DNA of 64,000 nucleotides from IMG/VR virus record IMGVR_UViG_3300028048_000083, positions 59,364-123,363 of that record, one strand, 5' to 3'. This document shows, one piece after another, positions 614 to 59,425 of this stretch; position 1 is the first letter of the stretch; every line of letters starts with the position of its first letter. The translations under genes and the position numbers were made by a program. Source of the stretch: a virus. Its lineage: Duplodnaviria > Heunggongvirae > Uroviricota > Caudoviricetes. The notes beneath the pieces are model-generated. The model searched no databases. It worked only from the letters and a program-made list of their open reading frames with translations, and was not told the origin of the DNA.

Positions 614-2487
614 ACATTAAAGATATTGAGGAAAGAAACCACGCTGAACCGCCAGAAGTCAAGGAAATAAGGGATAATATTATAAATTCATTCAAACGTC
701 TGGAATTTCAGGAAGGTCCTCATAAATATTATGTGCATAATGACGATGGGAGCGTTGTGGAATTGCCTAGTGTGTCAGCAATGACTCATCAATTCAAACC
801 AGAGTTTGAGACAGACTACCAGGCTGAAAAATATGCCTTGAAACATGCAATGGAAAAAGAGGCTGTATTGCGAATGTGGGAGGAAAACAATGTAAGAGCC
901 ACGAACAATGGAACTTCGACCCATCTCTACGGCGAAGGATTTATGCATTTCTTCATGGGTCACCCAGAAAAAATATCCCCCATAGTAAAACCCCAATACG
1001 AAAAAGGGTATCTGATACCTTATTCAAATAAACAGGAAGGTGTCCTGCAGTTTTACGAAGATTTGTTCACAATCGATTCAATATATCCAGTAATGCCAGA
1101 AGCTCAGGTTTATATGGGCATCAATCCGAATTATAGCGATATAATTCCGTATGCTGGAACATTCGACATGCTGTTTACGTACAAAGCACCTGACGGCAAA
1201 TGGAAACTGTTGCTATATGACTGGAAAGGTCTTCCGTTGGATACCCCAATATTAACAACCAAAGGTTTTAAAACAATGGGTACTCTAACCATTAACGATA
1301 TTGTATACGATAAGGATGGAAATGAGACCAGAATATTGCACATATCTGATATTCATAATAACCCTTGTATGAAAATCACATTTAATGATAATTACAGCAT
1401 TGTGTGTGATATTGACCACAGATGGTTAGTTAGTTCAAAAAAATGGGATAACGACAGAGTTATGACTACCAAAGAACTTCAAGAATACCTATCTGAGATT
1501 GGTGATAAATCAAAAAACAGCTATTATGCTGTCAGAATATCTAATAATAAACCGATTAGCAACACTAATCTGATTGAACTACCTATTGACCCGTATGTGT
1601 TTGGTGTGTGGCTTGGTGATGGGCATTCAAAAGCGGGCTATATTACAAACATGTATGATGGCATTTTCAATGAGATTGAAAAACGAGGTTATAAAGTAGG
1701 TAAAAATGTAAACGACGGTGTACATTGCGGGAAAGCAAAAACTAGATGTGTTTTTGGTTTATACACTAAACTGAAAAAATTAGGCGTATGTGGAAACAAA
1801 CACATTCCAGATTGTTATATTGTAAATTCAACCTATGAGCAAAGGCTTGATTTACTTAAAGGTATAATGGATACTGATGGGTATTATAATAAAACACGAA
1901 ATCGGTTCAGTATATCAACAACTAGAGAAAGCCAAGTTGAATTTGTGTGTAAATTATTAACAAGTTTAGGAATTAAACCTACGGTAATAAAAGCAAAAGG
2001 AAAATGTAACAATTGTAAAAAGAAAAAAATATTTGATAAATTTGATGTGTGCTTTTCAACCGATATTTATCCGTTTTTGGTAAGGCGTGTTGAAATTAAA
2101 CCAAGTAAAAAAAGTTATGATACGTGCAGAATTATATCATCAATTACCGCTTGTGATAGTGTACCGACAAGATGTATTGAAGTTGACAGTCCAACTCACA
2201 CATATTTAGCAGATAAAATGCTGTTGGTTACACATAACACCAACAAGTCGTTATATAAGGATTATTCCAGGGAATTTGGCAAAATGGCTTTGGAACCTTT
2301 TGACGACCTTTACGATGAGGATTACTCGTATTATATACTCCAATTGTCATGTTATTCTCTTTGTTTAATGCAGCTTGGGTATGAGATTGCGGACAGAAAA
2401 ATAATCTGGCTTAAAGAGGATGGTTCCTATGACAAAGTAAGTGTCCCAGATTTCACCTCCAGGGTTAGGGTCGCTTTACATAAATAA
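607..2487 (+). CDS. Intein-containing PD-(D/E)xK exonuclease-like protein (YqaJ/lambda-exo-like exteins)
   Basis: 626-aa ORF. N-extein ends ...LLLYDWKG (D-x-K). C-extein carries a YYILQLSCY motif resembling the QxQ/Y motif of lambda-exonuclease/RecB-family nucleases. Central 336 aa carry Hint and LAGLIDADG motifs. Confidence 0.5.
   Translation: MLNIKDIEERNHAEPPEVKEIRDNIINSFKRLEFQEGPHKYYVHNDDGSVVELPSVSAMTHQFKPEFETDYQAEKYALKHAMEKEAVLRMWEENNVRATNNGTSTHLYGEGFMHFFMGHPEKISPIVKPQYEKGYLIPYSNKQEGVLQFYEDLFTIDSIYPVMPEAQVYMGINPNYSDIIPYAGTFDMLFTYKAPDGKWKLLLYDWKGLPLDTPILTTKGFKTMGTLTINDIVYDKDGNETRILHISDIHNNPCMKITFNDNYSIVCDIDHRWLVSSKKWDNDRVMTTKELQEYLSEIGDKSKNSYYAVRISNNKPISNTNLIELPIDPYVFGVWLGDGHSKAGYITNMYDGIFNEIEKRGYKVGKNVNDGVHCGKAKTRCVFGLYTKLKKLGVCGNKHIPDCYIVNSTYEQRLDLLKGIMDTDGYYNKTRNRFSISTTRESQVEFVCKLLTSLGIKPTVIKAKGKCNNCKKKKIFDKFDVCFSTDIYPFLVRRVEIKPSKKSYDTCRIISSITACDSVPTRCIEVDSPTHTYLADKMLLVTHNTNKSLYKDYSREFGKMALEPFDDLYDEDYSYYILQLSCYSLCLMQLGYEIADRKIIWLKEDGSYDKVSVPDFTSRVRVALHK
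1228..2238 (+). mobile_element. Intein: Hint domain with LAGLIDADG homing endonuclease
   Basis: Block A-like GLPLDTPILTTKG. LAGLIDADG motifs VFGVWLGDGHS and LLKGIMDTDGYY. Terminal ...LLVTHN followed by +1 Thr (penultimate His, terminal Asn). The N-terminal boundary is approximate because there is no Cys/Ser at position 1. Confidence 0.65.
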
Positions 2488-2493
2488 AATAAA

Positions 2494-2524
2494 AAACGCA
2501 GCCGTTATTCGACTGCGTTTTTGC
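2494..2524 (+). terminator. Rho-independent terminator
   Basis: AACGCAGCCGTTATTCGACTGCGTT hairpin followed by TTTTTG, immediately after the stop of the 607-2487 gene. An A-run upstream makes it potentially bidirectional. Confidence 0.55.
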
Positions 2525-2546
2525 TGTATTGCCCGTTTAATGGAGG

Positions 2547-3383
2547 TTAATCCTCTTCATATTGGTAAAGGTTTCCGTCCTGGTACATGAAGTACATTGA
2601 ATACCTGTTGTTTTTGCGCAACAGCCAAACGCCGTTTTCATCAGTCATTATCCTGCAGTACTTTCTGTTAACCTGGGTCTTGACCAGAATATTGTCGGAC
2701 TGGTCGGTGATTGTGAAATACGTTATGCCTGTCCTTTCGTCCCTGTAAATGGTGTACACATAAGTATCGTCGGTACTTACGGCAACGACTGTGGTCGACG
2801 GGTACTTGTTGTTCACATAGACAACCACGTCATTGAACGGATATGCCCTGACATAGCTCCAGTATCCGTACCAGTACATGTTGTAGACAACCCAGTCATG
2901 GCATGGATGGTAATGCATACGGATTGGTCTGTGATGGTGTATCGGATGATGCATCGGCGGCATGGGGTGCATTCCATGTGGTGTATGATGTACGTGCGGT
3001 CTGCCATGCGGGGCATGAGATTTGGGTGCTGTTATCGGACTGTGGTGTTCAGGACGGCTATATGAGCCATTATTTTGGCTTCTGGGCGTGTTTCTGTCTT
3101 TTCTGGTAGGATTTGTTGTCACACTATGTGAACGCTCCTCAGAGCGCCTGTTTATGGACGAATTTTGACTTGAGCGTCTGGTTGGTGTATATACTGCCCC
3201 TGTGTTGCGTGACGATGGGCTGTAGCCGTTTCTGTTAGAAGATTGTCTTGGTGAGGCTGACGAAGACCTTGAAACGGAAACAGAGCCTCTTGATGAGGAC
3301 GATGAACGTGAAGATGTGTTTCTTTGGGCAAAACACACTGTCCCCAAGATGGTCAAAATTGCCAAAAAAACTATTTTTTTCAT
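2547..3383 (-). CDS. Secreted Ser/Arg-rich and His/Pro-rich protein
   Basis: Likely start at MKKIVFLAILTILGTVCFAQ (signal peptide). Then a low-complexity S/R-rich stretch and an HxH/P-rich stretch (HAPHGRPHVHHTPHGMHPMPPMHHPIHHH). C-terminal Tyr/Trp-rich globular part. Confidence 0.5.
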   Translation of the reverse strand: MKKIVFLAILTILGTVCFAQRNTSSRSSSSSRGSVSVSRSSSASPRQSSNRNGYSPSSRNTGAVYTPTRRSSQNSSINRRSEERSHSVTTNPTRKDRNTPRSQNNGSYSRPEHHSPITAPKSHAPHGRPHVHHTPHGMHPMPPMHHPIHHHRPIRMHYHPCHDWVVYNMYWYGYWSYVRAYPFNDVVVYVNNKYPSTTVVAVSTDDTYVYTIYRDERTGITYFTITDQSDNILVKTQVNRKYCRIMTDENGVWLLRKNNRYSMYFMYQDGNLYQYEED

Positions 3384-3557: not shown

Positions 3558-4145
3558 TCAGTCCAATAAAACGGGTGGCAGGTTAGTGTGGTAACTCCAC
3601 ATTTTCTGTGCACGTGCCTGGATTGCGCCGTACAGTGTGCAGATGGTTGAACCAGCCTTCAATGCTGCTCTGTGCAATGACAGTTCCTCGCCGATGCTTT
3701 GGACAAAGGTATCCTCTGGTGCACAAACCGCCTTTGCTGTAACCTTGAATGTCTCGCAATAATCATATTCGACACATTCACCAAGCGGCTTTATTATGGT
3801 TCTGACTGGTATGATATCCCCAACTTGGGGAAGAAATTCCGTATCCTTACCACGGACATGTTTATAATATTTCCTGTTAAAAGCCAGTACCTTAGCTGTA
3901 CCACCAGGAAGAATGTAGTATTTGGCTACCACAGGTTCATTCATCGAATAGTTTGCGTTGGTGACTGTACACACAATCGGAAGGTATGTTCCGATAACAT
4001 TTTTAATGAATGACTGGTTAAACTGGAAGAACATTTCCTCGTAATGCCTCAGATTGACTTTCACAGTCATATCACAATAGACTGTGCTGTCTTCTGTACG
4101 GAATTTGGTATTTAAGACTTTGGCGTCAAAAAAATTTTTTTTCAT
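3558..4145 (-). CDS. hypothetical protein
   Basis: 195-aa ORF co-directional with its neighbours. No recognised motif. Confidence 0.45.
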   Translation of the reverse strand: MKKNFFDAKVLNTKFRTEDSTVYCDMTVKVNLRHYEEMFFQFNQSFIKNVIGTYLPIVCTVTNANYSMNEPVVAKYYILPGGTAKVLAFNRKYYKHVRGKDTEFLPQVGDIIPVRTIIKPLGECVEYDYCETFKVTAKAVCAPEDTFVQSIGEELSLHRAALKAGSTICTLYGAIQARAQKMWSYHTNLPPVLLD

Positions 4146-6204: not shown

Positions 6205-7090
6205 TTTGAAATTTTTTTAATTGACTTATAATTTTAATTGACTTTGTTTGAAATTAGTGACCCCGACAGGACTCGAACCTGCAAGACCTTTCGGCACCTC
6301 TTTAGGAGAGAGGGACGCTTCCAGTTACGTGCTACGAGGCCAGTATATAAATTATCTAGTGTCGGCATACTCATATTAGTTGGCAAATAAACCGATTATT
6401 TCCATACCTTTCATGTGCTTTCAATTCCGTCAGGTTCCTTTCCATGTTCGAGCTTTCTATACCATCCAAAACACTTTTCGCTAACCTTATCCAATTCCAT
6501 GTGGTAGCATCTAACATAAACCATTGCCACAATTTTACCTGGTTTGTTATCTAGTTAAATGGTAAAATTGGCGATATTTATTAGTTTATCTCAACTATTT
6601 ACTCATGCTGAATACCCAACCTTTTACAGCCAGTTGAGCTATAGCTTTGTTTTTTAGTCAAACATACTCCTACTGGGTGAGTTGGATGGTATTAATAACC
6701 ATAGGGACGTTTCTGGACTTACCAGAGGTATGATGGTGTCTACTTACTTCCATTCACCATTAGTGCAATCCGACACAATCCGTTTATGGCTTTCACCAGT
6801 TTATGTTTCCTAAATACAGTTTCCTTACTATACTAAGGTGACTCGGTCTGTGGTTCTTACGGGACTTTGTCTTTTTGGTATTTTGTCTCTTGTTTACATA
6901 TCTACCTTAAAGTGAGACTACTTTACTTTTAAATCCAATTTTTACCATTGGACTTGTCCCGTAGTATTCCCTGTTTTGATATGGACAGGGAATTACCACT
7001 CGATAACTCGTTACCTTTTCTAACCTTTAGGGTTGTAGGATAACCGACACTAGACAAATTATTTCAAAGACCTGTTATTTAAACCTGTAA
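6205..7090. other. ORF-free ~880-bp region: candidate large structured ncRNA and/or replication origin
   Basis: No ORF of 60 aa or more in any frame across 886 bp, inside an otherwise gene-dense genome. Several local hairpins, e.g. CCCTGTtttgatatggACAGGG at 6969-6990, and a long-range stem CGGGAC(6862)/GTCCCG(6955). Flanked by ssb and the tRNA-like element. Confidence 0.3.
6258..6341 (-). tRNA. tRNA-like element, possible tRNA with CCU anticodon and long variable arm
   Basis: Read on the minus strand: acceptor GGCCUCG pairs with CGGGGUC (two G-U pairs), T-arm GCAGG-UUCGAGU-CCUGU, anticodon-like stem CCUCU/AGAGG with loop CUCCUAA, variable-arm hairpin GCC-GAAA-GGU. No encoded CCA. The D-arm is non-canonical, with 4 nt between acceptor and D-stem. 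Confidence 0.4.
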
Positions 7091-10205: not shown

Positions 10206-11633
10206 TTATTTTTTAAAATTGTAATATTGTTCAACCAACGCCTTAAGATAAGGATTATTATCCGCATCAGCATAAATTTGATATTTATAACGGATGTCAA
10301 GCAGAATTTGATTCATTTTTTCAGCATCCATATGTTCTGGAAGGGTTGACTCAGCAATAGCTTTGTCAAGTGCATCTTTCTTATTTTCGAGTTCCTTTAT
10401 AAGATATTCATACTCATACTTATGGTTACGAATATCAAGTAGGAAATCAGCGTCAATACCCTTGCGGTAAATCTGAACCTTGCCAGTCTGGGCGATTTCA
10501 AGACCCATATTAAGCAGACGGAAGCAGTGCATCACATTCTTGCTGTCGTAATTGTGACCAAGATTGCTCTCATAGCGAACCTGGCTGCGTTTCTGAACCC
10601 ACTCCTGATACTGGTGGTATTTATTGCAATGTTGGGTAAACCCATCCTTATTATAAGTCATAACACAGATTGGCTCCTCATTCTTCGGAATTGAAGAACA
10701 ACGCACAGTGTCACTCTTGTTGATGTCATTGACGATATACTTAACACCATCCTCTTCAATGATTTTTGCTGCAGTTAAAACTTTGGTATCCTCGTCATAG
10801 AAGTAGTAATCACCTTTGTTATCAACCTTGATTTCTTTATTATTCTTTACTTCATCCACAGGAATCTTGACACCGTAATCCTTTACAATGCCACGATATC
10901 CGATTGGTTTTTGGGTATTATCGAACCATTCTCGTATTTCATGATGGAATAAATCAAACACGTCGTCAACCACAAAATTGTAATATTTTTTATCGTTATA
11001 AAACTCGCAGAATTCTGTATATTTGTTGTGGTTATGTGCACCGAAATCGTAATATACACCGTAGCAGTCAGGCATGTTGTTGAGTGAAACAAGACCGCAG
11101 TACTTCTGTTCAAGACCACGGGCATCAAGCCACTCCTTCATACAGGCACTACCCTGTTTGTATGAAGTAAAACAGAAATCAAGCGGCTCCTTACGTTCTG
11201 TAATGGGCTGGACACACATCTTGTTATAACCACGAGCTCGTTTAATCTGGGCAATGGCATAGCCAATAAATGAATTGAAACAATCCTTGGTCACAAACTC
11301 CTGACGATGCTTTTTAAGCTCAGTGATAATCGGGTGTTCATAGATAACAAAACGGTCGTCAATGAAAAGGGATTCAAGGATATTTGGATTACTTGAAAGC
11401 AGAAGGGTCAGATACTTCTTAAGGGAGTACCATGTATTGTCATGTTTATCATCAGCAATCTCATCCTGGAAATCAAGTCCAAGTCCAAGTACCTGGTTGA
11501 TAGGCTCAAGGTACACACCACCATGGTCTTCGTCGGACTCAGGGGTGTTGGTGCCGTATGCTACGCTTCCGCGCACATATTCATACAGGAGCCATCCGTT
11601 ATTTCTTATATCGTCAAATGTGTATTTCTTCAT
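10206..11633 (-). CDS. Pol-beta superfamily nucleotidyltransferase (COG3541-like)
   Basis: N-terminal LYEYVRGSVAYGTNTPESDEDHGGVY matches the nucleotidyltransferase GS-x-AYG...SDxD signature. 475 aa. Confidence 0.6.
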   Translation of the reverse strand: MKKYTFDDIRNNGWLLYEYVRGSVAYGTNTPESDEDHGGVYLEPINQVLGLGLDFQDEIADDKHDNTWYSLKKYLTLLLSSNPNILESLFIDDRFVIYEHPIITELKKHRQEFVTKDCFNSFIGYAIAQIKRARGYNKMCVQPITERKEPLDFCFTSYKQGSACMKEWLDARGLEQKYCGLVSLNNMPDCYGVYYDFGAHNHNKYTEFCEFYNDKKYYNFVVDDVFDLFHHEIREWFDNTQKPIGYRGIVKDYGVKIPVDEVKNNKEIKVDNKGDYYFYDEDTKVLTAAKIIEEDGVKYIVNDINKSDTVRCSSIPKNEEPICVMTYNKDGFTQHCNKYHQYQEWVQKRSQVRYESNLGHNYDSKNVMHCFRLLNMGLEIAQTGKVQIYRKGIDADFLLDIRNHKYEYEYLIKELENKKDALDKAIAESTLPEHMDAEKMNQILLDIRYKYQIYADADNNPYLKALVEQYYNFKK

Positions 11634-20801: not shown

Positions 20802-21856
20802 TACCCGCCAATTTTTTCGATTCTGAAGGTATCACAAAACATACAGTCAACATCCCCGTTACTGAAATGGTAATCCATTTCATTAGGTACAAGGTTGTTG
20901 TATAGTTTATAGACTAAAGCGTAATACGGTCCCTGCACGCACATCAGCTCACTGTTGGTAACAGTCAGGCTAAACGGCTTCGGGTGTTCATGGCGGGCAT
21001 AGAAAGTAAAGTGTTTACGGTTTCTGGCATTTGAGAAAAAGTTATATCCATCCAACGTATATATTTTAACATGCACATCTATACCGATAGAACTTCTGCA
21101 CATTTCAGGAAAATGTTCAAGTTTATCGTAATCACCGTATGATGTCATATCCGAAAGTTCAATCGTAATCTCATCGGCATTGATTGAATTGATTTCATAC
21201 GGAAAATTGAAGTAGCAACCCATAAGGTCAAGTATCTTATAAACCATATAAGTCTCTACAGTGAAAACCCTGGACGGATTCAGCTGTCCGAAGAAAACCT
21301 GTCTGAAATATTTGCTGTTAATCACAAGAGGGTTGTCCGTGAACTTTTTGATGAATTCGTCATAAGTCGCGCTGTTGAACATGATGTTTTTGTCAACGTA
21401 ATTCATAGCCTGAAAGTTGGCTTTACACAAGTCAATCGACACAAGGGTCTTACCGATGTTACCCTCATGGAAAATATTCTTGGACTTTTGCTTGTATTCG
21501 TTTTTGTTGACACCGTAACGGTTCATGTCCATTTGGTTGAACTTTATATAAGCCTCGTTTTCTTTCACTGCGTTGATGACAGTGTTGCGTATGTCCAAAA
21601 ACCCTTCAACAAATGATTGCGGATTACCATCAAATTGTTCTTCAATCAAAAGGCAGAGTTTGTTCCATTTTTCAATCGTATTAAAAACCTTATCATAGTT
21701 TTCTATGTGATAGAAAAAAAGTTTTTCGTTTACGACTGGCATTGGCAACCTGTGCTCGTTCACAAACCTTGTAGCCATTGGGAATGTCCACAAATCTTTG
21801 TAAACGGTGTTAGAGTCAATACAATTTTTAATCTGTTTTATATTATCAGTATTCAT
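20801..21856 (-). CDS. hypothetical protein
   Basis: 351-aa ORF. No recognised motif. Confidence 0.5.
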   Translation of the reverse strand: MNTDNIKQIKNCIDSNTVYKDLWTFPMATRFVNEHRLPMPVVNEKLFFYHIENYDKVFNTIEKWNKLCLLIEEQFDGNPQSFVEGFLDIRNTVINAVKENEAYIKFNQMDMNRYGVNKNEYKQKSKNIFHEGNIGKTLVSIDLCKANFQAMNYVDKNIMFNSATYDEFIKKFTDNPLVINSKYFRQVFFGQLNPSRVFTVETYMVYKILDLMGCYFNFPYEINSINADEITIELSDMTSYGDYDKLEHFPEMCRSSIGIDVHVKIYTLDGYNFFSNARNRKHFTFYARHEHPKPFSLTVTNSELMCVQGPYYALVYKLYNNLVPNEMDYHFSNGDVDCMFCDTFRIEKIGG

Positions 21857-21877
21857 TATCCAACCGTCGGCGGGAAA

Positions 21878-21897
21878 CCCGTGAATTTATTCACGGG
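21878..21897. promoter_or_regulatory. Perfect palindrome CCCGTGAATTTATTCACGGG
   Basis: 20-bp inverted repeat in the 236-bp intergenic region. It shares a GAATT(T/C)ATTC core with a second palindrome at 22067-22086. Confidence 0.4.
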
Positions 21898-21950
21898 AGG
21901 GATAGCCGACTTGTATCCCCTCTTTGATTAATATACAGCTTATTTTTAAC

Positions 21951-21986
21951 TATAACCAAAATAAACGCACTTTTTCTTTAAAAGCC
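21951..21986 (-). promoter_or_regulatory. Conserved upstream motif (class B variant), instance
   Basis: Plus-strand TATAACCAAAATAAACGCACTTTTTCTTTAAAAGCC, upstream (minus sense) of the 20801-21856 gene. Confidence 0.35.
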
Positions 21987-22066
21987 ACAAAAACTTTTCT
22001 CACTTTTACAAACAACGTGATATTTAAAACCCGATATAGCTAGTTAGCTTGTTCGGTCTTGCAAGC

Positions 22067-22086
22067 CACCGAATTCATTCGGTGGT
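22067..22086. promoter_or_regulatory. Perfect palindrome CCACCGAATTCATTCGGTGG
   Basis: 20-bp inverted repeat just past the stop of the 22093-22326 gene. Candidate operator or transcript-end hairpin. Confidence 0.4.
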
Positions 22087-22092
22087 AGTTGA

Positions 22093-22326
22093 CTAGATTG
22101 TTGAAATGTTTATTTTTTCAAAATTTACAACTACAGTCACTATGTTCCTGTATCCGCTTACTCTGAGACTGTCTCTGATATCGTCAGCAGTCTGTTGGTC
22201 ATTGTATAAGTTGGAATCGAGAACATTTTTAAACCAATCTATACCGTTGCCGCTGATTTTGCAGAAACTGTTGTCCTCAGGGTTATGGATTACATACCGA
22301 ACGCCACTTTGTTTCATAAGATGCAT
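22093..22326 (-). CDS. hypothetical protein
   Basis: 77-aa ORF. Confidence 0.4.
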   Translation of the reverse strand: MHLMKQSGVRYVIHNPEDNSFCKISGNGIDWFKNVLDSNLYNDQQTADDIRDSLRVSGYRNIVTVVVNFEKINISTI

Positions 22327-22462: not shown

Positions 22463-23281
22463 TTACCTGACAGGAATTGCACCAATACTGTCAAAACGTT
22501 CCCTACCATCCTCATTGGTTAGTTGGAAACCATCAAAGGCTTTCCAATAATGACGTGTGTAAGTAGCTGGAATATTTGGATTTGTACGTTCTCCAGTGTA
22601 TTCAAATTCCTCTTCAACACGGTAAATGAACCGACCGAATTTCTTTCCATCCTCATAATCGTTCCAATCAACACCAGTCATTTCCTTAAGGAGGTTAATC
22701 TGCTCGTCTGCGTTCAGGCTTTCAAGTTGCTTGTGTGAAATTCTAGCCTGAGCTGCCTGTTGCTTTGAGTTACGGATACAGTCAATCTGCCTGTAAAGGA
22801 ACCAGGCAAACACATCATTATATGTAGGTAGATTCCAACACTTACAGTCAAACTGATATAGTGGCATATCAACAATAGTATCAATAGTTTGATGTGTAGG
22901 GATATATTTAATCGCGTGTTGAGTCATTAGATTATTGAACTTTGCCGTTGCCAAAGATGCAATAATCGAAAGCATTTTGGTAAGTCTGTAACCGAAGAAT
23001 GATTCAGTGTTCTCATTCTCGAAGTCTGTAATGACCAGTGAAATCTCATCTGACTGGACATAACCGAATTTGGCACCTTCCACTTTGGAACATACGTATT
23101 TGGCTGTCTCATTCATCATATCAATGAAATTATCGTCAAACGGTTTCTCAAACTTGTTCTTAATCATGGTTGAAAAAGAACGACCATCTAAGAAAACTAA
23201 AACATAACTTTTCGGCATTAACTTATAATCGGTCAAGCCACGGAAATACTCCATTCTGTCTTTTAATGTGTTAAATCTCAT
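22463..23281 (-). CDS. Thg1-like protein (tRNA-His guanylyltransferase family, 3'-5' polymerase)
   Basis: YVLVFLDGRSFSTMIKNKFEKPFDDNF resembles Thg1 VVRIDGKGFHKFTKKHGFEKPND. GYVQSDEISLV resembles Thg1 AYGQSDEYSFV, the second catalytic carboxylate motif. 272 aa. Confidence 0.8.
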   Translation of the reverse strand: MRFNTLKDRMEYFRGLTDYKLMPKSYVLVFLDGRSFSTMIKNKFEKPFDDNFIDMMNETAKYVCSKVEGAKFGYVQSDEISLVITDFENENTESFFGYRLTKMLSIIASLATAKFNNLMTQHAIKYIPTHQTIDTIVDMPLYQFDCKCWNLPTYNDVFAWFLYRQIDCIRNSKQQAAQARISHKQLESLNADEQINLLKEMTGVDWNDYEDGKKFGRFIYRVEEEFEYTGERTNPNIPATYTRHYWKAFDGFQLTNEDGRERFDSIGAIPVR

Positions 23282-31858: not shown

Positions 31859-32194
31859 TTAGACTATTTTTATCTGTTTTTTGGTAACATCTGGTTTTGG
31901 GTGTGGCACTTCATCAAATTTCAGTTCATCCAAAGCATCATATATCTTTTTGATATTTGAAATTGATTGCCTATTTGTGCACCAAAGGGTTTCAGTTATT
32001 GAGTCACTGCCACTAACTTTATATCTGATATGCAATTCTCCAATCAAAAGGTTTCCAACCCTTACACTTGGGTCAAAGAACACATTTGCTATTTCTGGCG
32101 TTATTTCAACCAATTCCTGGGCATCATAAGTCTTTAAATCATCGCCATCATATAATTTAATTATCGTGTCTAACAGTATGTACTTTGATTTCAT
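31859..32194 (-). CDS. hypothetical protein
   Basis: 111-aa ORF. Confidence 0.4.
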   Translation of the reverse strand: MKSKYILLDTIIKLYDGDDLKTYDAQELVEITPEIANVFFDPSVRVGNLLIGELHIRYKVSGSDSITETLWCTNRQSISNIKKIYDALDELKFDEVPHPKPDVTKKQIKIV

Positions 32195-32634
32195 AGTTCA
32201 CGTTTTGATTGTCTGTCAATATCCCTCTCTTTAATATCCCTGCGCTTGTCGTATGTTTTTTTGCCACTGGCAATAGCAACCACCACTTTGCACAAGTTTC
32301 TCTCATTGATGAAAAGCTTATATGGCACAACAGTCATTCCCTTGATTTTAACCTGCTCATATATTTTCTTCAATTCACTTTTGTTCAAGAGCAGTTTCCT
32401 GTCCCTGTTGTAATCCTTGGCTGTATACGTGTCGTGTTCACGTTTTGGAGTCACAACCGAATTTTTAAGAAACAGTTCATTTCCAACAAAATGACAATAA
32501 GATTCAGAAATGTTGACACGTCCATCTCTGATTGCGCTGATTTCCGCGCCATTCAACACAATGCCAGCAACATATGTGTCCTTGAACTCATAGTTGAAAC
32601 TTGCCTTTTTGTTTGTAATTTCAAATCTTTTCAT
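32191..32634 (-). CDS. smpB: SsrA-binding protein SmpB homolog
   Basis: NKKASFNYEFKDTYVAGIVLNGAEISAIRDGRVNISESY...NRDRKLLLNKSELKKI...KGMTVVPYKLFINERNLCKVVVAIASGKKTYDKRRDIKERD matches the SmpB family end to end. Confidence 0.85.
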   Translation of the reverse strand: MKRFEITNKKASFNYEFKDTYVAGIVLNGAEISAIRDGRVNISESYCHFVGNELFLKNSVVTPKREHDTYTAKDYNRDRKLLLNKSELKKIYEQVKIKGMTVVPYKLFINERNLCKVVVAIASGKKTYDKRRDIKERDIDRQSKREL

Positions 32635-33037
32635 CTTTTATCTGATATGTCTTTAACCACACCGAAACCGTCTTTCACGCAATTAATCACTAACTGTGCT
32701 GCGGCATATATTGGATATTCACTGTAGCATACATATGGAGTACTGTCAGGGGCTTCCTGGTATTGGGCAAAATAAAACGGCGCATCTTTCCAGAAAATCA
32801 ACCCCTTGTATTCAGGGTGCCATTCGATTAGTTTATACTGTAGTTCCGATAGTGTATATGTAGGTGTAAACGGATAATTCATTTGCTCAGCCAACGACTT
32901 GTCTTCAGAGACATATTCTGTTCCGTCGATATCGATTATCCAGTATTTGTTGTCACCCATGGGAACACCGCTATCAACGAATTTCTGCATCCATTTCTTA
33001 TTCAGGAAATCTTGTTCTATTTTATCCGATAATCTTA
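32631..33037 (-). CDS. hypothetical protein
   Basis: Trimmed to the internal Met (MLRLSDK...). A class-B motif lies upstream at 33064-33092. Confidence 0.4.
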
Positions 33038-33098
33038 ACATAACACAGCTTATTATATTACAATAACCGAAATTGTGCAACTTTTTCCACGATTCCTG

Positions 33099-33548
33099 TT
33101 AATTGATAAACATAGGTTCAGGCACAAAACCAGGAGATTTTGAACCGTCATCGTATTCCAATAGCTCACAGCCAATAATCCTGAATAGAATTCTATTCAA
33201 AGTTTCCTCGGTACAATCTCCATCACCAAGGTCTTTTCCGCGAGTCCAATCTTCCAATGGTTTAAAATATCTATTTGAACATTCCCCGCAAATCCAGTTA
33301 TTTTTAACTGTAATAAAATATTCGTGCTTTTCGGTAAATAGTATTAGTTTATACCTTTTATCCTCTCTAGTTGATTTAAGGATAGCAACCCTTGAATTCC
33401 TATCTCCATTGAACATACAACAAATTTGTTCAAAAGGTGTTTTGAAAATTGGGAAATCGGTAATGAATTCATCAACCGTTCCTTCTCTCCACCCTTCCTT
33501 GTAGGTGTCAATTATCCAACCCGAATCAATTCTTTCTTGTATTGTCAT
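33099..33548 (-). CDS. hypothetical protein
   Basis: 149-aa ORF. Confidence 0.45.
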   Translation of the reverse strand: MTIQERIDSGWIIDTYKEGWREGTVDEFITDFPIFKTPFEQICCMFNGDRNSRVAILKSTREDKRYKLILFTEKHEYFITVKNNWICGECSNRYFKPLEDWTRGKDLGDGDCTEETLNRILFRIIGCELLEYDDGSKSPGFVPEPMFIN

Positions 33549-33549
33549 G

Positions 33550-34014
33550 TTATATTACTTTTAATTTATGTCTATATTCACTAATTATTTCATTCAATAT
33601 AATGGAGTCGGAAGCGTAATAACAGTCATTTTCCACATATTCGCTACCTTTAGGTATAGTACATTTTACTGCCACAAGCCTCATATAAGAACGAGAGGCA
33701 TATTCATATAGTTGCCATAAGGCTGTTTCTTCATTTTTATATGAATGAAACGCTTCATGTACCTCATAGAAATAACACCTATGCATAGCATCATATCCAA
33801 CACTAAAACCAAGACCTAACTCTGGTTTACGTTGATATGTTCTGCCAATAACATATTCGAAATTCTGATATAGTGATTTCAACACTTCGTTATTATCTTC
33901 TGCGATTGTATATGTATAACTTTTTAGTATTTTATAACAAGTTATATCTTTTTCCGCAATTTTAATAGCCTTTTCTGGCATTTGGTGTGGTTCTAATATT
34001 AAGCACATAATCAA
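33550..34014 (-). CDS. hypothetical protein
   Basis: 154-aa ORF. Confidence 0.45.
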   Translation of the reverse strand: MIMCLILEPHQMPEKAIKIAEKDITCYKILKSYTYTIAEDNNEVLKSLYQNFEYVIGRTYQRKPELGLGFSVGYDAMHRCYFYEVHEAFHSYKNEETALWQLYEYASRSYMRLVAVKCTIPKGSEYVENDCYYASDSIILNEIISEYRHKLKVI

Positions 34015-34326
34015 TTATCAAAATTTATGGTTTTCAAAATGACGCCCCAAAACACAGGGTTGGCATTACCGTCAGTCGGCTGGGTCAAAAGTTCATGCTG
34101 GAGGTTTTTCAAAAACTCGTATTGTTCTTGTGTTACTTCTATTTTCATAATAATCAACGCAAGGAAACCACGAAATCTTCAGTTTCGTGGAGGAATTGCG
34201 GTGCTTCCTTTTTAATTCTTATTTCTAATATACAACTTTTTTTAAAAAATCTTCAAATTTTTAGTCACTTTTCAATTCTACTGACTATTTATATATGTAC
34301 TTTCCTTTAAGGAAACCAATTTCGAT

Positions 34327-35496
34327 ATGAGTATAAGGACTTATAACATACAACTCTCAGGCGAACAGTCGTTCGTGAACCATTGGTTCAATCTCTTGTC
34401 AACGACAAGAGATGCATATAACCGTTGTTCACAACTGATTGTTGAGAACGATATTCCTCTCAGTTTGAAAGTGGTTCATAACCAGTGTTATAATATCCTT
34501 CGCTCAGAATACCCATCACTACCGTCACAGACGGTGATACGCGTTCAACGAGAGGTGCTGGCTGCATTCAAGTCCAAGAAATCCAACAAGCACAAGGGTT
34601 CTGCTCCACAGAAACATAATTTGTCAATGACGTTGGACAAACGCATGTACTCTAACTTCACTCGTGACGGCATATCCCTTGTGAGTGAGGTCAGCAACAA
34701 GCGTAAACGCTTGTCCTTCACACCATATCCTAAGATTGCGGAGATGTTTGCCACATCTGTGGCAAAAGACCCTACCATCTTCTGGAGGAATGACGGACTG
34801 TGGCTGTCAATACCGTTTGAATTTAACGGATGTATGCCTGAAAGCATATATGCCATAGGTGTGGACCTTGGCATGAAGAGGTTCTTCGTAACATCGGAAG
34901 GCAAGGCTTTCACTGACAAGGAGTATCTTGGACGTAGGCGAAAGATAAGGCATCTTAAGAAGAAACTACAGTCCAAGGGAACGAGGAGTGCCAAGAAGCG
35001 CCTCAAGAAGGTTTCAAGGAAAGAACATAACATGTCAAAGAACTATTGTCATCAGGCGTGCAACGCCCTCATAAGGTCGACAAAGGCAAGCTTTGTCGTG
35101 ATGGAGGATTTGGCAAAGATAAAGAAGAACACAAGCCGAAGCAAGGAAGGGCACAAGAGGAAGAGACACAACAACGCCATATCACAGGTGCCGTTCCATA
35201 TGTTTAAGCAGATATTGACGTACAAGGCAACGCTTGCTGGAAAGCAGGTGGTATCGGTTTCGCCATTCAATACAAGTCAGTGTGACAGCAGGACAGGTCT
35301 CAAGGAAGGAAAACGACAGGGCTGTCGTTTCTATACCGAAGACGGATACCTGTTGGATGCCGACTGGAACGCAGCAGTCAATATAGCTCAGAAGAGCAAA
35401 CACCCACTCTCAAAATCAGTGTTGCCGTTGCACGGCAAACTTGAGTTCCTGAGTGGCAGGGCATCGTCAACTGCCCAATCGTATCAAGACCTTTAA
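34327..35496 (+). CDS. tnpB: TnpB (IS605/IS1341-family OrfB; RNA-guided nuclease family)
   Basis: RuvC-I-like IGVDLGMKRFF, RuvC-II-like VVMEDL, C-terminal zinc-finger region NTSQCDSRTG...GCRFYT, and RuvC-III DADWNAAVNIAQK. No IS200-type tnpA is adjacent. Confidence 0.85.
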   Translation: MSIRTYNIQLSGEQSFVNHWFNLLSTTRDAYNRCSQLIVENDIPLSLKVVHNQCYNILRSEYPSLPSQTVIRVQREVLAAFKSKKSNKHKGSAPQKHNLSMTLDKRMYSNFTRDGISLVSEVSNKRKRLSFTPYPKIAEMFATSVAKDPTIFWRNDGLWLSIPFEFNGCMPESIYAIGVDLGMKRFFVTSEGKAFTDKEYLGRRRKIRHLKKKLQSKGTRSAKKRLKKVSRKEHNMSKNYCHQACNALIRSTKASFVVMEDLAKIKKNTSRSKEGHKRKRHNNAISQVPFHMFKQILTYKATLAGKQVVSVSPFNTSQCDSRTGLKEGKRQGCRFYTEDGYLLDADWNAAVNIAQKSKHPLSKSVLPLHGKLEFLSGRASSTAQSYQDL

Positions 35497-35580
35497 GTCT
35501 TAGGTACAAGCCCACAAATCTTTAGTTTGTGGGTAGTTGACAATTCTATCTTAGTTCTATCTTAGTTCTATGTTCACTTT
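35497..35580 (+). mobile_element. Putative right end / omega-RNA scaffold region of the tnpB element
   Basis: Directly after the stop codon: hairpin GCCCACAAATCTTTAGTTTGTGGGT followed by tandem TCTATCTTAGT x2 (+ partial). The exact element boundary is not determinable by eye. Confidence 0.3.
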
Positions 35581-35791
35581 TTTTAAGCATTATAACACAA
35601 CAATCGTAGTTCGTGTTATATAAAAGTGTTCTGTCTGTAACTTTATACATCTGTTTATCAATGCATATATTTTCATTGACATTTGGAACCACGTCACTTG
35701 TGGTTACAAGAACTTGTTCAATGTCATTCGAATCATCGCATTGGCAATAGAAATGAAGCCTCATATTATGAATATACAAAAAAATAACCAA
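35546..35791 (-). CDS. hypothetical protein
   Basis: 81-aa ORF. Confidence 0.35.
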   Translation of the reverse strand: MVIFLYIHNMRLHFYCQCDDSNDIEQVLVTTSDVVPNVNENICIDKQMYKVTDRTLLYNTNYDCCVIMLKKSEHRTKIELR

Positions 35792-35797
35792 AATGCA

Positions 35798-36127
35798 TTA
35801 ATAAAACCAATAACAATTAATATGGTCTTCAATTGCTGGGGAACTGTCAATATGTGACCGTTCATACCTTGACATGAACTGTTGAATTTCACGAAGGTTT
35901 TTCTTGTCCAAGGTTATGAATTTCAGGTAGCACGAATGCGGACCACTATCAACTTTAATGACAGCCCAAGAATCTGACATCAAATGGTGGTCGACACAGA
36001 CATCGCCATACTTATGGAATATGACGTCAAGATGCCGTGCAACCGCTTTTTTTATCCTTGAATCAATGAAAGCCTTTAATCTTGTATATGGGTTTATTTT
36101 GGATAAAAAACATTTAATTTTCTTCAT
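35798..36127 (-). CDS. hypothetical protein
   Basis: 109-aa ORF. Confidence 0.4.
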   Translation of the reverse strand: MKKIKCFLSKINPYTRLKAFIDSRIKKAVARHLDVIFHKYGDVCVDHHLMSDSWAVIKVDSGPHSCYLKFITLDKKNLREIQQFMSRYERSHIDSSPAIEDHINCYWFY

Positions 36128-36241
36128 ATGTCATATACATTTAGTTCCATTGGTTGTCATTTTTTTCTTTGTACTTGAAATAGCCGTACATTAATGCGGC
36201 GCCGATAATCATTCCTACAATCATAATCATGTGTTTTTAAG

Positions 36242-36553
36242 TTATTTATCAAATTTAATTGAAAGATTCAATTTGTCTTCTGTTTCAACTGCGGTCAAGG
36301 ATTTGTTCCATATAAGGATGGTGTCACCAACAATTTCAGTATGAGTGACTATTTTCCATACATGGTTTAAGGATACCTTGTTTTTTGATGAAGTTTCCTT
36401 TTCAACCTTATGAATCGGAACCATCCCGTTTTCCTGGACAATCATGCAGTTTGTATCAATAGGTATGTCCACTGGGCTTGCTATTGTGACTACATAACCG
36501 TTACCAATAACACATTGGCGGTTTGTTACTTGATATTCATTAAACGGACTCAT
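36242..36553 (-). CDS. hypothetical protein
   Basis: 103-aa ORF. Confidence 0.4.
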   Translation of the reverse strand: MSPFNEYQVTNRQCVIGNGYVVTIASPVDIPIDTNCMIVQENGMVPIHKVEKETSSKNKVSLNHVWKIVTHTEIVGDTILIWNKSLTAVETEDKLNLSIKFDK

Positions 36554-36561
36554 TATCAGTT

Positions 36562-36954
36562 TTATTTACCGTAATAAAACCATTGAGGTGTTACCACCAC
36601 AGCGACATAGGCATCATCGCATCCCTTAATACAGTCGCCAAAAACATCACTTTGAAACCTAAATCCTCTGTCATACGTGCCGTCACCGTCGTAAGGGCGT
36701 TCCCCGATATCAGCCTTTTTAAGCCACCCCCACACAAAATCGGTTATCTCTTTTTTATCCATTGTGTAGGGAAACCATGATACTTCATCTGAAGTTTGTT
36801 TACTGTCATTCCAGTAAATAAACATCCTTAGACCATATTCTTCGTCTTTAATTACCCTGTATCCGTAATACTTGGTATGGTTTTCATCAGCCAAATCAAA
36901 GCATTTGACTAAATTGTCCTTTCCGTTGAGATAGATACTCATTTTACCGTTCAT
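36562..36954 (-). CDS. hypothetical protein
   Basis: 130-aa ORF. Confidence 0.45.
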   Translation of the reverse strand: MNGKMSIYLNGKDNLVKCFDLADENHTKYYGYRVIKDEEYGLRMFIYWNDSKQTSDEVSWFPYTMDKKEITDFVWGWLKKADIGERPYDGDGTYDRGFRFQSDVFGDCIKGCDDAYVAVVVTPQWFYYGK

Positions 36955-36962
36955 AATCCATA

Positions 36963-37310
36963 TTATATTTTAAGTGATTGGTGCTTGATGAAATTGTCAA
37001 CGCTTAAATAAACAGCGTTGTTGTTGATAACCAAATCGTTCCCACACCAAGTGTACTGCCCTAAAATGTTCATAAGGTCATGAAGCTGGAATTCAGTAAG
37101 GGTGACTGGTTCTTCAATTCCGTTAATCAAATATTTCTCTGTCCTGTTTCGGTAAAAGGCAACTGAATCGGACACATGTTTTTCAACATCCCACACCTGG
37201 TCTACCTTCTCAAACAGATTCCTGTAATGTGTTTCAATACAATCCCACCCGTATTGGGTCAGTTCAACCCATACTGAGTCGTTCAGATTCATTTTTATTT
37301 CAAGAGACAT
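36963..37310 (-). CDS. hypothetical protein
   Basis: 115-aa ORF. Confidence 0.4.
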   Translation of the reverse strand: MSLEIKMNLNDSVWVELTQYGWDCIETHYRNLFEKVDQVWDVEKHVSDSVAFYRNRTEKYLINGIEEPVTLTEFQLHDLMNILGQYTWCGNDLVINNNAVYLSVDNFIKHQSLKI

Positions 37311-59236: not shown

Positions 59237-59425
59237 TCAGTCAACCCATAGCCAATCCAGGAATTTCAGCCACATAGACAGTAAAAAAGGCATTGTATAT
59301 CCAAACAGGATATATTCAAAACCCCAGAGGAAAGGTATTTCGACTATTATAAACGGTACCAACATTATTCCAATGATGATTCCTGCTAGCAGTTTAATGA
59401 CATTAATCAGTCTGTTTTTCATTTT
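59237..59425 (-). CDS. small membrane protein
   Basis: Trimmed to MKNRLINVIKLLAGIIIGIMLVPFIIVEIPFLWGF.... Confidence 0.35.
   Translation of the reverse strand, partial: KMKNRLINVIKLLAGIIIGIMLVPFIIVEIPFLWGFEYILFGYTMPFLLSMWLKFLDWLWVD

Follow-up and report, generated by a model that had tools for sequence, protein, structure and literature searches.

A tnpB-only insertion sequence of the IS200/IS605 family, probably mobilised in trans, in a large uncultivated phage

The 64,000-nt stretch of Caudoviricetes DNA analysed here (positions 59,364 to 123,363 of the IMG/VR record IMGVR_UViG_3300028048_000083; hereafter the window, numbered from its first letter) contains at 34149..35541 an element which is, with a probability of about 0.85, a non-autonomous insertion sequence of the IS200/IS605 family, IS1341 type, inserted seamlessly 3' of TTCAT, moving with a TnpA provided in trans and retained by means of TnpB and its omega-RNA. 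This reading is carried by two ends, a target-adjacent motif (TAM), an empty site, a conserved RNA structure, intact catalytic residues and purifying selection on TnpB, all of which are seen directly in the window and its relatives. As judged from sequence comparison, the element has been recently active and is not domesticated.

Ends, insertion site and empty alleles

In nine sister contigs (L018, L019, L020, L023-L027 and L118), the flanks are 96-100% identical to those of the window and exactly 34149..35541 is missing, which gives an element of 1393 nt whose left boundary has a 3-nt AAT ambiguity. The empty-site contigs read ...CTTCTATTTTCAT/AATTCTATCTTAGTTCTATGTTCAC..., that is TTTTCAT/AATTCTATCTTAGT (the slash marks the junction; the same start is found in TTTTCAT/AATTCTATC), with no target duplication, and the occupied site of the window reads ...TTTTCAT/AATAATCAACGCAAGG...GGGTAGTTGAC/AATTCTATC..., where the flank at the right junction begins with AATTCT. 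An earlier sequence-only reading of this DNA had proposed an IS1341-like element acquired by insertion and had named a clean empty site in close relatives as a check; the proposal is borne out by these empty sites and by the conserved ends, but the start that it gave (34216) falls inside the left end. Assemblies from three samples (L017 and L021 in the first, L120 in the second, L022 in the third) independently show the occupied junctions, and an assembly artefact is therefore rejected. The insertion point is the ATGA stop/start overlap of two phage genes, which are split by the element, and the GC content of the element (43.7%, vs ~36% in the flanks) agrees with a foreign origin.

The TAM TTCAT occupies 34144..34148 (+), where it is defined by the empty sites and by its conservation before the left ends of ~40 relatives, and its CAT, read on the minus strand, is the ATG of the adjoining 45-aa gene. 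The final 5 nt of the element, TTGAC (35537..35541, +), constitute the transposon-encoded motif (TEM), which mismatches the TAM at positions 3 and 5, the same TAM/TEM relation that is shown by IS200/IS605 elements in Meers et al. (PMC10055086). The left end (34149..34326, +), bounded by the empty-site comparison and with an architecture kept in relatives, comprises in order ~12 nt, an outer stem, the AGGAAACC block, a subterminal hairpin (CCACGAAA-TCTTCAG-TTTCGTGG; 34168..34190, +; DNA fold z = -4.2), GGAGGAATTGC, an AT-rich stretch with the conserved TATTTATATAT and a small palindrome before the ATG. The right-end subterminal hairpin (GCCCACAAATCTTTAGTTTGTGGGT; 35510..35534, +; DNA fold z = -4.3), which is also the last stem of the omega-RNA (helix 8; 95.9% paired, with changes on both sides in six of nine pairs), is similar to it in sequence, has the same orientation and shares the loop TCTTYAG, and there are no terminal inverted repeats.

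In IMG/VR, GTDB genomes and JGI metagenomes, 98 loci of the family were found, and these confirm the conserved left and right ends that the sequence-only reading had suggested looking for. About 40 distinct left ends run from an unrelated flank through TTCAT (TTCAC in a sub-clade), 12-15 nt, the AGGAA block and a TCTTYAG-loop hairpin to GGAGGAAT, and 59 distinct right ends consist of CAAGCC, a hairpin with the same loop and the near-invariant GGTAGTTGAC, after which all flanks differ. The hairpin stems covary, with compensatory changes, across the ~40 loci at the left end and the 59 at the right end. DNA similarity to the closest copies, L015 (89%), L014 (85%) and L016 (77%), which lie in unrelated contexts, ends at 35539-35541, and in a ten-locus alignment conservation drops sharply after ...CAAGCCCACAAATCTTTAGTTTGTGGGTAGTTGAC.

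Just 5' of the tnpB start codon (34285..34326, also in L001-L028), the motif TATTTATA(T/A)A is conserved, and after it comes a short palindrome that varies in sequence but stays symmetrical (TTTCCTTTAAGGAAA, TTCACCTAATGAA, GTTCACGACGTGAAC); together they may be a promoter plus a hairpin in the 5' untranslated region. The promoter and terminator scan of the element used a sigma-70 model, which may not be that of the host; the host group is likely Bacteroidota, whose promoters differ from the sigma-70 consensus. Assemblies break repeatedly inside the left-end and right-end hairpins of this element and of the second element described below (L017, L021, L022, L113, L115-L117 and L120), and many family homologues lie on contigs of 1-2 kb, which is the behaviour expected of a multi-copy, palindrome-bearing repeat.

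TnpB, the omega-RNA and the guide

The tnpB gene (34327..35496, +) encodes a protein of 389 aa, recognised as TnpB already in the sequence-only reading, which scores 145.2 bits against guided_TnpB (NCBIfam NF040570; cut-off 100) and lies above threshold for both Pfam Cas12f1-like_TNB and OrfB_IS605 (PF07282, 56 with a cut-off of 26.3; PF01385, 31 with a cut-off of 30.5), while its score of 77.6 against Cas12f2 (NCBIfam) is far under the cut-off of 450. The three RuvC motifs read earlier from the letters (IGVDLGMKRF, MEDL and DADWNAAVNIAQK) are present in the translation, and the catalytic residues D180 (GVDLG), E260 (MEDL) and D346 (DADWNAA) are invariant in 32 homologues, which answers the question of RuvC substitutions raised at that time. 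A profile of these 32 homologues matches solved TnpB and Cas12f chains with E values of about 1e-14 to 1e-9, with the RuvC motifs aligned. The AlphaFold2 (AF2) model has a predicted local distance difference test score (pLDDT) of 83.4 and a predicted template modelling score (pTM) of 0.75, and its top Foldseek matches in the PDB are AsCas12f, CnCas12f, ISFba1 TnpB and ISDra2 TnpB (E = 4e-17 to 2e-10, probability 1.0); the TM-scores are only 0.32-0.40, probably because the domain orientation differs, and the identity to solved TnpBs in the structural alignments is 16-19%. As judged non-exhaustively from the map of open reading frames (ORFs) and the gene calls of sister contigs, tnpB is the only convincing plus-strand gene at ~15-52 kb, in agreement with the long minus-strand run noticed before.

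The zinc finger listed among the TnpB signatures in the sequence-only reading is not found. In the TNB domain, the window protein has only C319 and C333 in place of the canonical CxxC...CxxC, and the clade consensus at this position is TSQ-T-D-S/C-R-T-G ... G-C-R-Y-Y-C, whereas the solved relatives have C-S-K-C-G ... C-K-K-C-G. As the TNB domain scores above its Pfam threshold, the missing zinc finger is taken as a variant trait and not as an exclusion from the TnpB family. The two cysteines, standing where solved TnpB and Cas12f proteins have the two CxxC pairs, would be expected if the nuclease had been killed by the loss and the ORF were an inactive relic that has merely not decayed, but this is very improbable, as the loss is clade-wide, covering more than 900 homologous proteins and 305 confirmed metagenome loci with dozens of distinct insertion sites, the D-E-D triad is invariant, the RNA stems inside the coding region covary and the AF2 model is confident over residues 310-360 (pLDDT ~82-89). 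The ratio of nonsynonymous to synonymous substitution rates (dN/dS) is 0.03-0.10 against the three closest relatives L014, L015 and L016 (dS 0.4 up to saturation), which speaks against a relic and argues strongly for purifying selection on TnpB.

The omega-RNA scaffold (35352..35541, +) shares the last 145 nt of tnpB and extends to the right end of the element, so that several of its stems are inside the coding region. In an alignment of the last 240 nt of 53 elements, RNAalifold gives 27 pairs, with compensatory changes in 17 of them. A 43-pair structure specified by the authors is 86.4% paired (29-45% in controls with slid partners) and has a covariation of 0.458 (at most 0.12 in the controls), and none of 500 shuffles reaches its score; in this structure, GACU of the DADW codons (35362-35365) pairs over a long range with AGUU just 5' of the right end (35535-38). 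When the window and its two closest relatives are left out of the training set, the resulting covariance model matches 35352..35541 (+) over its full length (155.1 bits, E = 3e-52), with the match ending exactly at the right end, and the scaffold as a single sequence folds with z = -6.4. The omega-RNA and the right end are thus where the sequence-only reading placed them, at the 3' end of the ORF, and the hairpin and the repeat that it saw after the stop codon both exist; however, only the hairpin belongs to the element, while the tandem repeat lies beyond the right end at 35541, in phage DNA where the guide would be read, and is part of neither the scaffold nor the end.

By the established TnpB rule, the phage DNA directly 3' of the right end (35542..35561, +; AATTCTATCTTAGTTCTATC) would be transcribed and used as the guide. 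The first 19 nt of this predicted guide are identical to the sequence after TTCAT in the empty sites of sister phages; that is, the guide is the right flank of the element itself and thus matches its own empty site. No other match to its 12-20 nt is present in the window and none in IMG/VR, so the targets elsewhere in host or phage genomes envisaged by the sequence-only reading did not emerge from these searches. Two of the empty sites, in L019 and L024, have T for C at guide position 9 (AATTCTATTTTAGT...; equivalent to window 35550), a change which could lower cleavage by TnpB and may be either neutral or an escape variant.

The sequence-only reading had left room for a domesticated nuclease used by the phage, e.g. 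against competing phages. Such a nuclease would no longer be a transposon and would be kept for the benefit of the phage, to exclude competitors or to attack host or other mobile DNA. Domestication of this kind would accord with the strong selection on TnpB and with the frequency of TnpB genes in phages (PMC12607003), and the cutting of element-less sister phages would incidentally give a competitive advantage. However, the element is present or absent among phages that are 96-100% identical, the two ends, TAM and TEM show no decay and conform to the family pattern, the guide is its own flank with no other match, and the closest relatives (77-89% DNA identity) are in unrelated contexts. Since the element is polymorphic, with intact ends and a guide from its own flank, domestication is unsupported and is considered slightly less probable even than the relic.

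Mobility, family and population pattern

The element contains no TnpA and therefore belongs to the tnpB-only, non-autonomous (IS1341-type) group. TnpA-bearing relatives with the same ends are L101 (137 aa, PF01797, E = 1.7e-37), L085, L081, L109 and L092, in which TnpA is located between the left end and tnpB. In the sub-clade of L029, L007, L030 and L084, the left end is ~820 nt upstream of tnpB, and L029 has at the TnpA position of L101 and L085 an ORF of 202 aa (2332..2940, +) with no Pfam match, which may be a cargo gene of these elements. Among 185,579 species-representative genomes only three loci of the family were found, one in Prevotella sp. CAG:1092 and two in a single sheep-rumen Bacteroidaceae metagenome-assembled genome. 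At least 12 family loci have flanks carrying homologues of genes of this phage at different positions, and its relatives have thus been colonised repeatedly. Since TTCAT read on the other strand is ATGAA, insertion exactly at start codons was considered as a possible preference; of 36 sites, 14 open an ORF of at least 60 codons, and the share among control TTCAT sites is 25%, a difference that does not establish such a preference.

A second element of the family in the window, TnpB-less and 237 nt long (21857..22093, +), was recognised by regular expression and by reading of the sequence and resembles a palindrome-associated transposable element (PATE) or a miniature inverted-repeat transposable element (MITE). 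It is inserted 3' of TTCAT (21852..21856), separating exactly the stop codon of a 77-aa gene from the ATG of a 351-aa gene, is likewise seamless and polymorphic (site empty in L112 and L114, occupied in L113 and L115-L117), and is an internal-deletion derivative of an L074-type full element that retains only the last ~67 nt of the scaffold, its right end being matched by the covariance model with 20.6 bits (E = 6e-6). Similar fragments occur beside full elements elsewhere: L010 has a left and a right end ~200 nt apart (3561..3764), a TnpB-less mini-element, and extra solo right ends are found in L061 (236..271) and L077 (3704..3739).

The steps by which the element would move and persist are drawn from established IS200/IS605 biology, with the TAM/TEM logic after Meers et al. 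(PMC10055086). A Y1 TnpA acting in trans, from the host, an unsampled part of the phage genome or a co-resident element, would bind the two similar subterminal hairpins and move the element as single-stranded DNA ('peel and paste'). The tnpB transcript would be processed to an omega-RNA of ~180 nt, whose 3' extension would be the guide AATTCTATCTTAGTTC... from the flanking phage DNA, and TnpB with this RNA would cut copies of the phage locus that carry TTCAT followed by the guide sequence (AATTCTATCTTAGTTCTATG), which may be either the site vacated by excision or its counterpart in an element-less sister phage infecting the same cell. Repair by recombination with an occupied copy would then restore or spread the element, while the occupied site is proposed to be immune to cutting because its right end reads TTGAC and not TTCAT. 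An excised circle or donor joint would read GTTGAC/AATAATCAAC.

Several points weigh against this account. The four zinc-finger cysteines of characterised TnpB and Cas12f proteins are missing here and throughout the clade, so that nuclease competence is inferred, and the production and processing of the omega-RNA are likewise predicted; the covariance model takes the place of the Rfam identification that had been suggested earlier, as Rfam has no family for this omega-RNA (no match at gathering thresholds, and in a permissive scan sub-threshold noise only, e.g. HEARO on the wrong strand with 18.6 bits against a cut-off of 83). No TnpA was found in the 64-kb window by tblastn with the family TnpA (nothing at E <= 10), and Y1_Tnp is not among the 25 of 51 matching families listed from a Pfam scan of the 122 window ORFs of at least 100 aa, in keeping with the absence of a nearby TnpA noted in the sequence-only reading. 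Finally, the presence/absence polymorphism proves movement of the element, not cleavage by TnpB.

The population pattern fits an element gained and lost repeatedly, whether by transposition, precise excision, homing or recombination. Occupied and empty alleles are each found on both the 45-aa and the 173-aa backgrounds of the adjacent gene. At the same site, L022 (6576..6605) carries a copy whose right-end hairpin is CCCACGATTTCAATCGTGGG, vs CCCACAAATCTTTAGTTTGTGGG in the window, with flanks that are 98.7% identical and without the 11-nt duplication described below; its contig stops 33 nt into the element, and the copy is possibly an independent insertion, a recombinational replacement or the homing of a variant.

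RNA-guided homing from phage to phage ('non-restorative homing', a concept laid out in PMC13565253) could be the main route of spread, with TnpA dispensable within the phage population, and this is a serious, though not the favoured, alternative to TnpA-driven movement. The exact match of TTCAT and the first 19 guide nt to the empty site of sister phages, the lack of a TnpA in the window, the two allele states on both backgrounds, the divergent copy in L022 and the 12 or more family loci in relatives of this phage speak for homing. However, the first insertion at a site would still require a transposase, dozens of unrelated insertion sites and the TnpB-less derivatives need TnpA, and the four-gamete pattern is explained equally by precise TnpA excision, re-insertion or ordinary recombination. 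A somewhat more tentative proposal is that the element in these large phages mainly acts as an RNA-guided homing endonuclease between co-infecting genomes, cutting empty sites with TTCAT and AATTCTATCTTAGTTC... If homing were true, the both-haplotype pattern, the two divergent copies at one site and the C-to-T change in L019 and L024 would be footprints of the drive and of resistance to it, and the TnpB clade without a canonical zinc finger would be a working nuclease. The preferred reading remains an insertion sequence moved by TnpA in trans and retained by TnpB and its omega-RNA.

The split gene pair, the phage genome and comparison with known systems

The gene left of the element (34011..34148, -; 45 aa) has its ATG directly against the left end. 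Some sister phages have a 173-aa form of this gene (L018 6576..7097), from which the 45-aa form derives by deletion, the two differing by an in-frame indel of ~384 nt at window 34038-34041. The 45-aa form is present in the window and several sister phages, and in L118 a further deletion takes what is left of this gene together with the neighbouring 152-aa gene. The gene on the right (35546..35764, -) encodes 72 aa in the window and 71 aa in the empty-site phages, where its TGA stop and the start codon of the next gene overlap (ATGA). The insertion alone would lengthen the 71-aa protein by 16 residues read from the right end of the element, or by 5 with the variant right end of L022. In the window lineage, an extra 11-nt unit brings a TAG stop, 5 nt from the element, into frame, and the protein ends in ...KIELR vs the native ...KIEL. 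This unit belongs to the 11-nt tandem repeat at 35544..35571 (period 11, 2.5 copies, 100% matches), phage DNA outside the element which has 2.5 copies in the window lineage only and 1.5 in the empty sites and the occupied contig L022. The duplication possibly arose by slippage on pre-existing TCTAT microhomology, as a repair scar or as a selected compensation for the lost stop. A CRISPR-like or scaffold function of the repeat is rejected, because it is duplicated phage DNA whose extra unit is absent from L022 and the empty sites.

The window is a stretch of a large phage genome, with a terminase (PHROG matches), many small minus-strand genes, SSB, a sigma factor, a set of RNA-repair genes and a phage SmpB, and sister contigs reach 245.6 kb. 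Near-identical phage contigs were retrieved by exact look-up of a neighbouring 109-aa phage protein; an exact look-up of the 351-aa protein encoded next to the 237-nt element gave no match. In GenBank phages there is no DNA match for 33000..37000 and, at the protein level, only distant TnpBs with 25-27% identity; in IMG/VR, peptide patterns of two neighbouring phage proteins and exact patterns of the occupied junction and the empty site gave no match. SmpB (32191..32634, -; PF01668, E = 1.1e-46), the partner protein of transfer-messenger RNA (tmRNA), is conserved in all sister contigs, and a tmRNA gene was not detected in the window by ARAGORN. RNA-repair and tRNA functions are abundant here, comprising Thg1 (22463..23281, -), a nucleotidyltransferase (10206..11633, -), tRNA-Arg(CCT) (6257..6341, -), an RNA ligase, RlaP, HAD_SAK_2 and cREC_REC ('Swiss-army-knife' RNA repair) and an RNA-binding protein (PHROG 850), with further genes for TelA, a Band_7 protein, thioredoxin, ThyX and a sigma-70 family protein.

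The element is ordinary in kind, as TnpB elements are common and known in phages and their selfish homing and retention has been described. TnpB genes in phages and their presence or absence among related phages have been reported (PMC12607003, PMC11054128), as has guide-RNA-directed homing to vacant sites, including those of co-infecting phages (PMC10055086, PMC13565253). Its value is that of a natural test case, in which both ends, the two motifs (TAM and TEM), the guide and its exact unoccupied target are all defined, near-identical uncultivated phages carry either the occupied or the empty allele, a TnpB-less derivative is present in the same genome, and a clade without the canonical zinc-finger cysteines is clearly under selection. 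These features make two questions testable, namely the homing of TnpB from phage to phage and the dispensability of the zinc finger in compact RNA-guided nucleases.

Among known systems, the element has every testable defining feature of a tnpB-only element of IS200/IS605, except the zinc finger, whose loss is clade-wide. It shares with the IS1341 group (the ISDra2-type and Geobacillus stearothermophilus ISGst TnpB elements) the RuvC D-E-D triad, subterminal hairpins of the same orientation at both ends without terminal inverted repeats, seamless insertion 3' of a pentanucleotide TAM with a TEM differing from it at two positions, a structured RNA over the 3' end of tnpB that ends at the right end and takes its guide from the flank, and relatives with the same ends that are TnpA-bearing or gene-less (PATE-like). 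Unlike those examples, it has no canonical four-cysteine zinc finger, low identity to solved TnpBs and an omega-RNA outside Rfam, and it sits in a large, virulent-looking phage with many family members in related phages.

The free-standing homing endonuclease genes of T-even phages (Seg/Mob; 'intronless homing') are similar in that a nuclease gene lies between conserved phage genes, is polymorphic in close relatives and, as is predicted here, would cut the element-less allele in a co-infecting genome. In the present element, however, recognition would be by a guide RNA and the TAM, not by protein, self and non-self would be distinguished by presence or absence of the element and not by nearby sequence differences, and transposon ends allow movement to unrelated sites. 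CRISPR-Cas12f (type V-F) resembles it in fold and RuvC architecture, the best structural matches being AsCas12f complexes, but the element has no CRISPR array (the only repeat being the 11-nt, 2.5-copy phage duplication) and no adaptation genes, and its guide is fixed by the insertion site.

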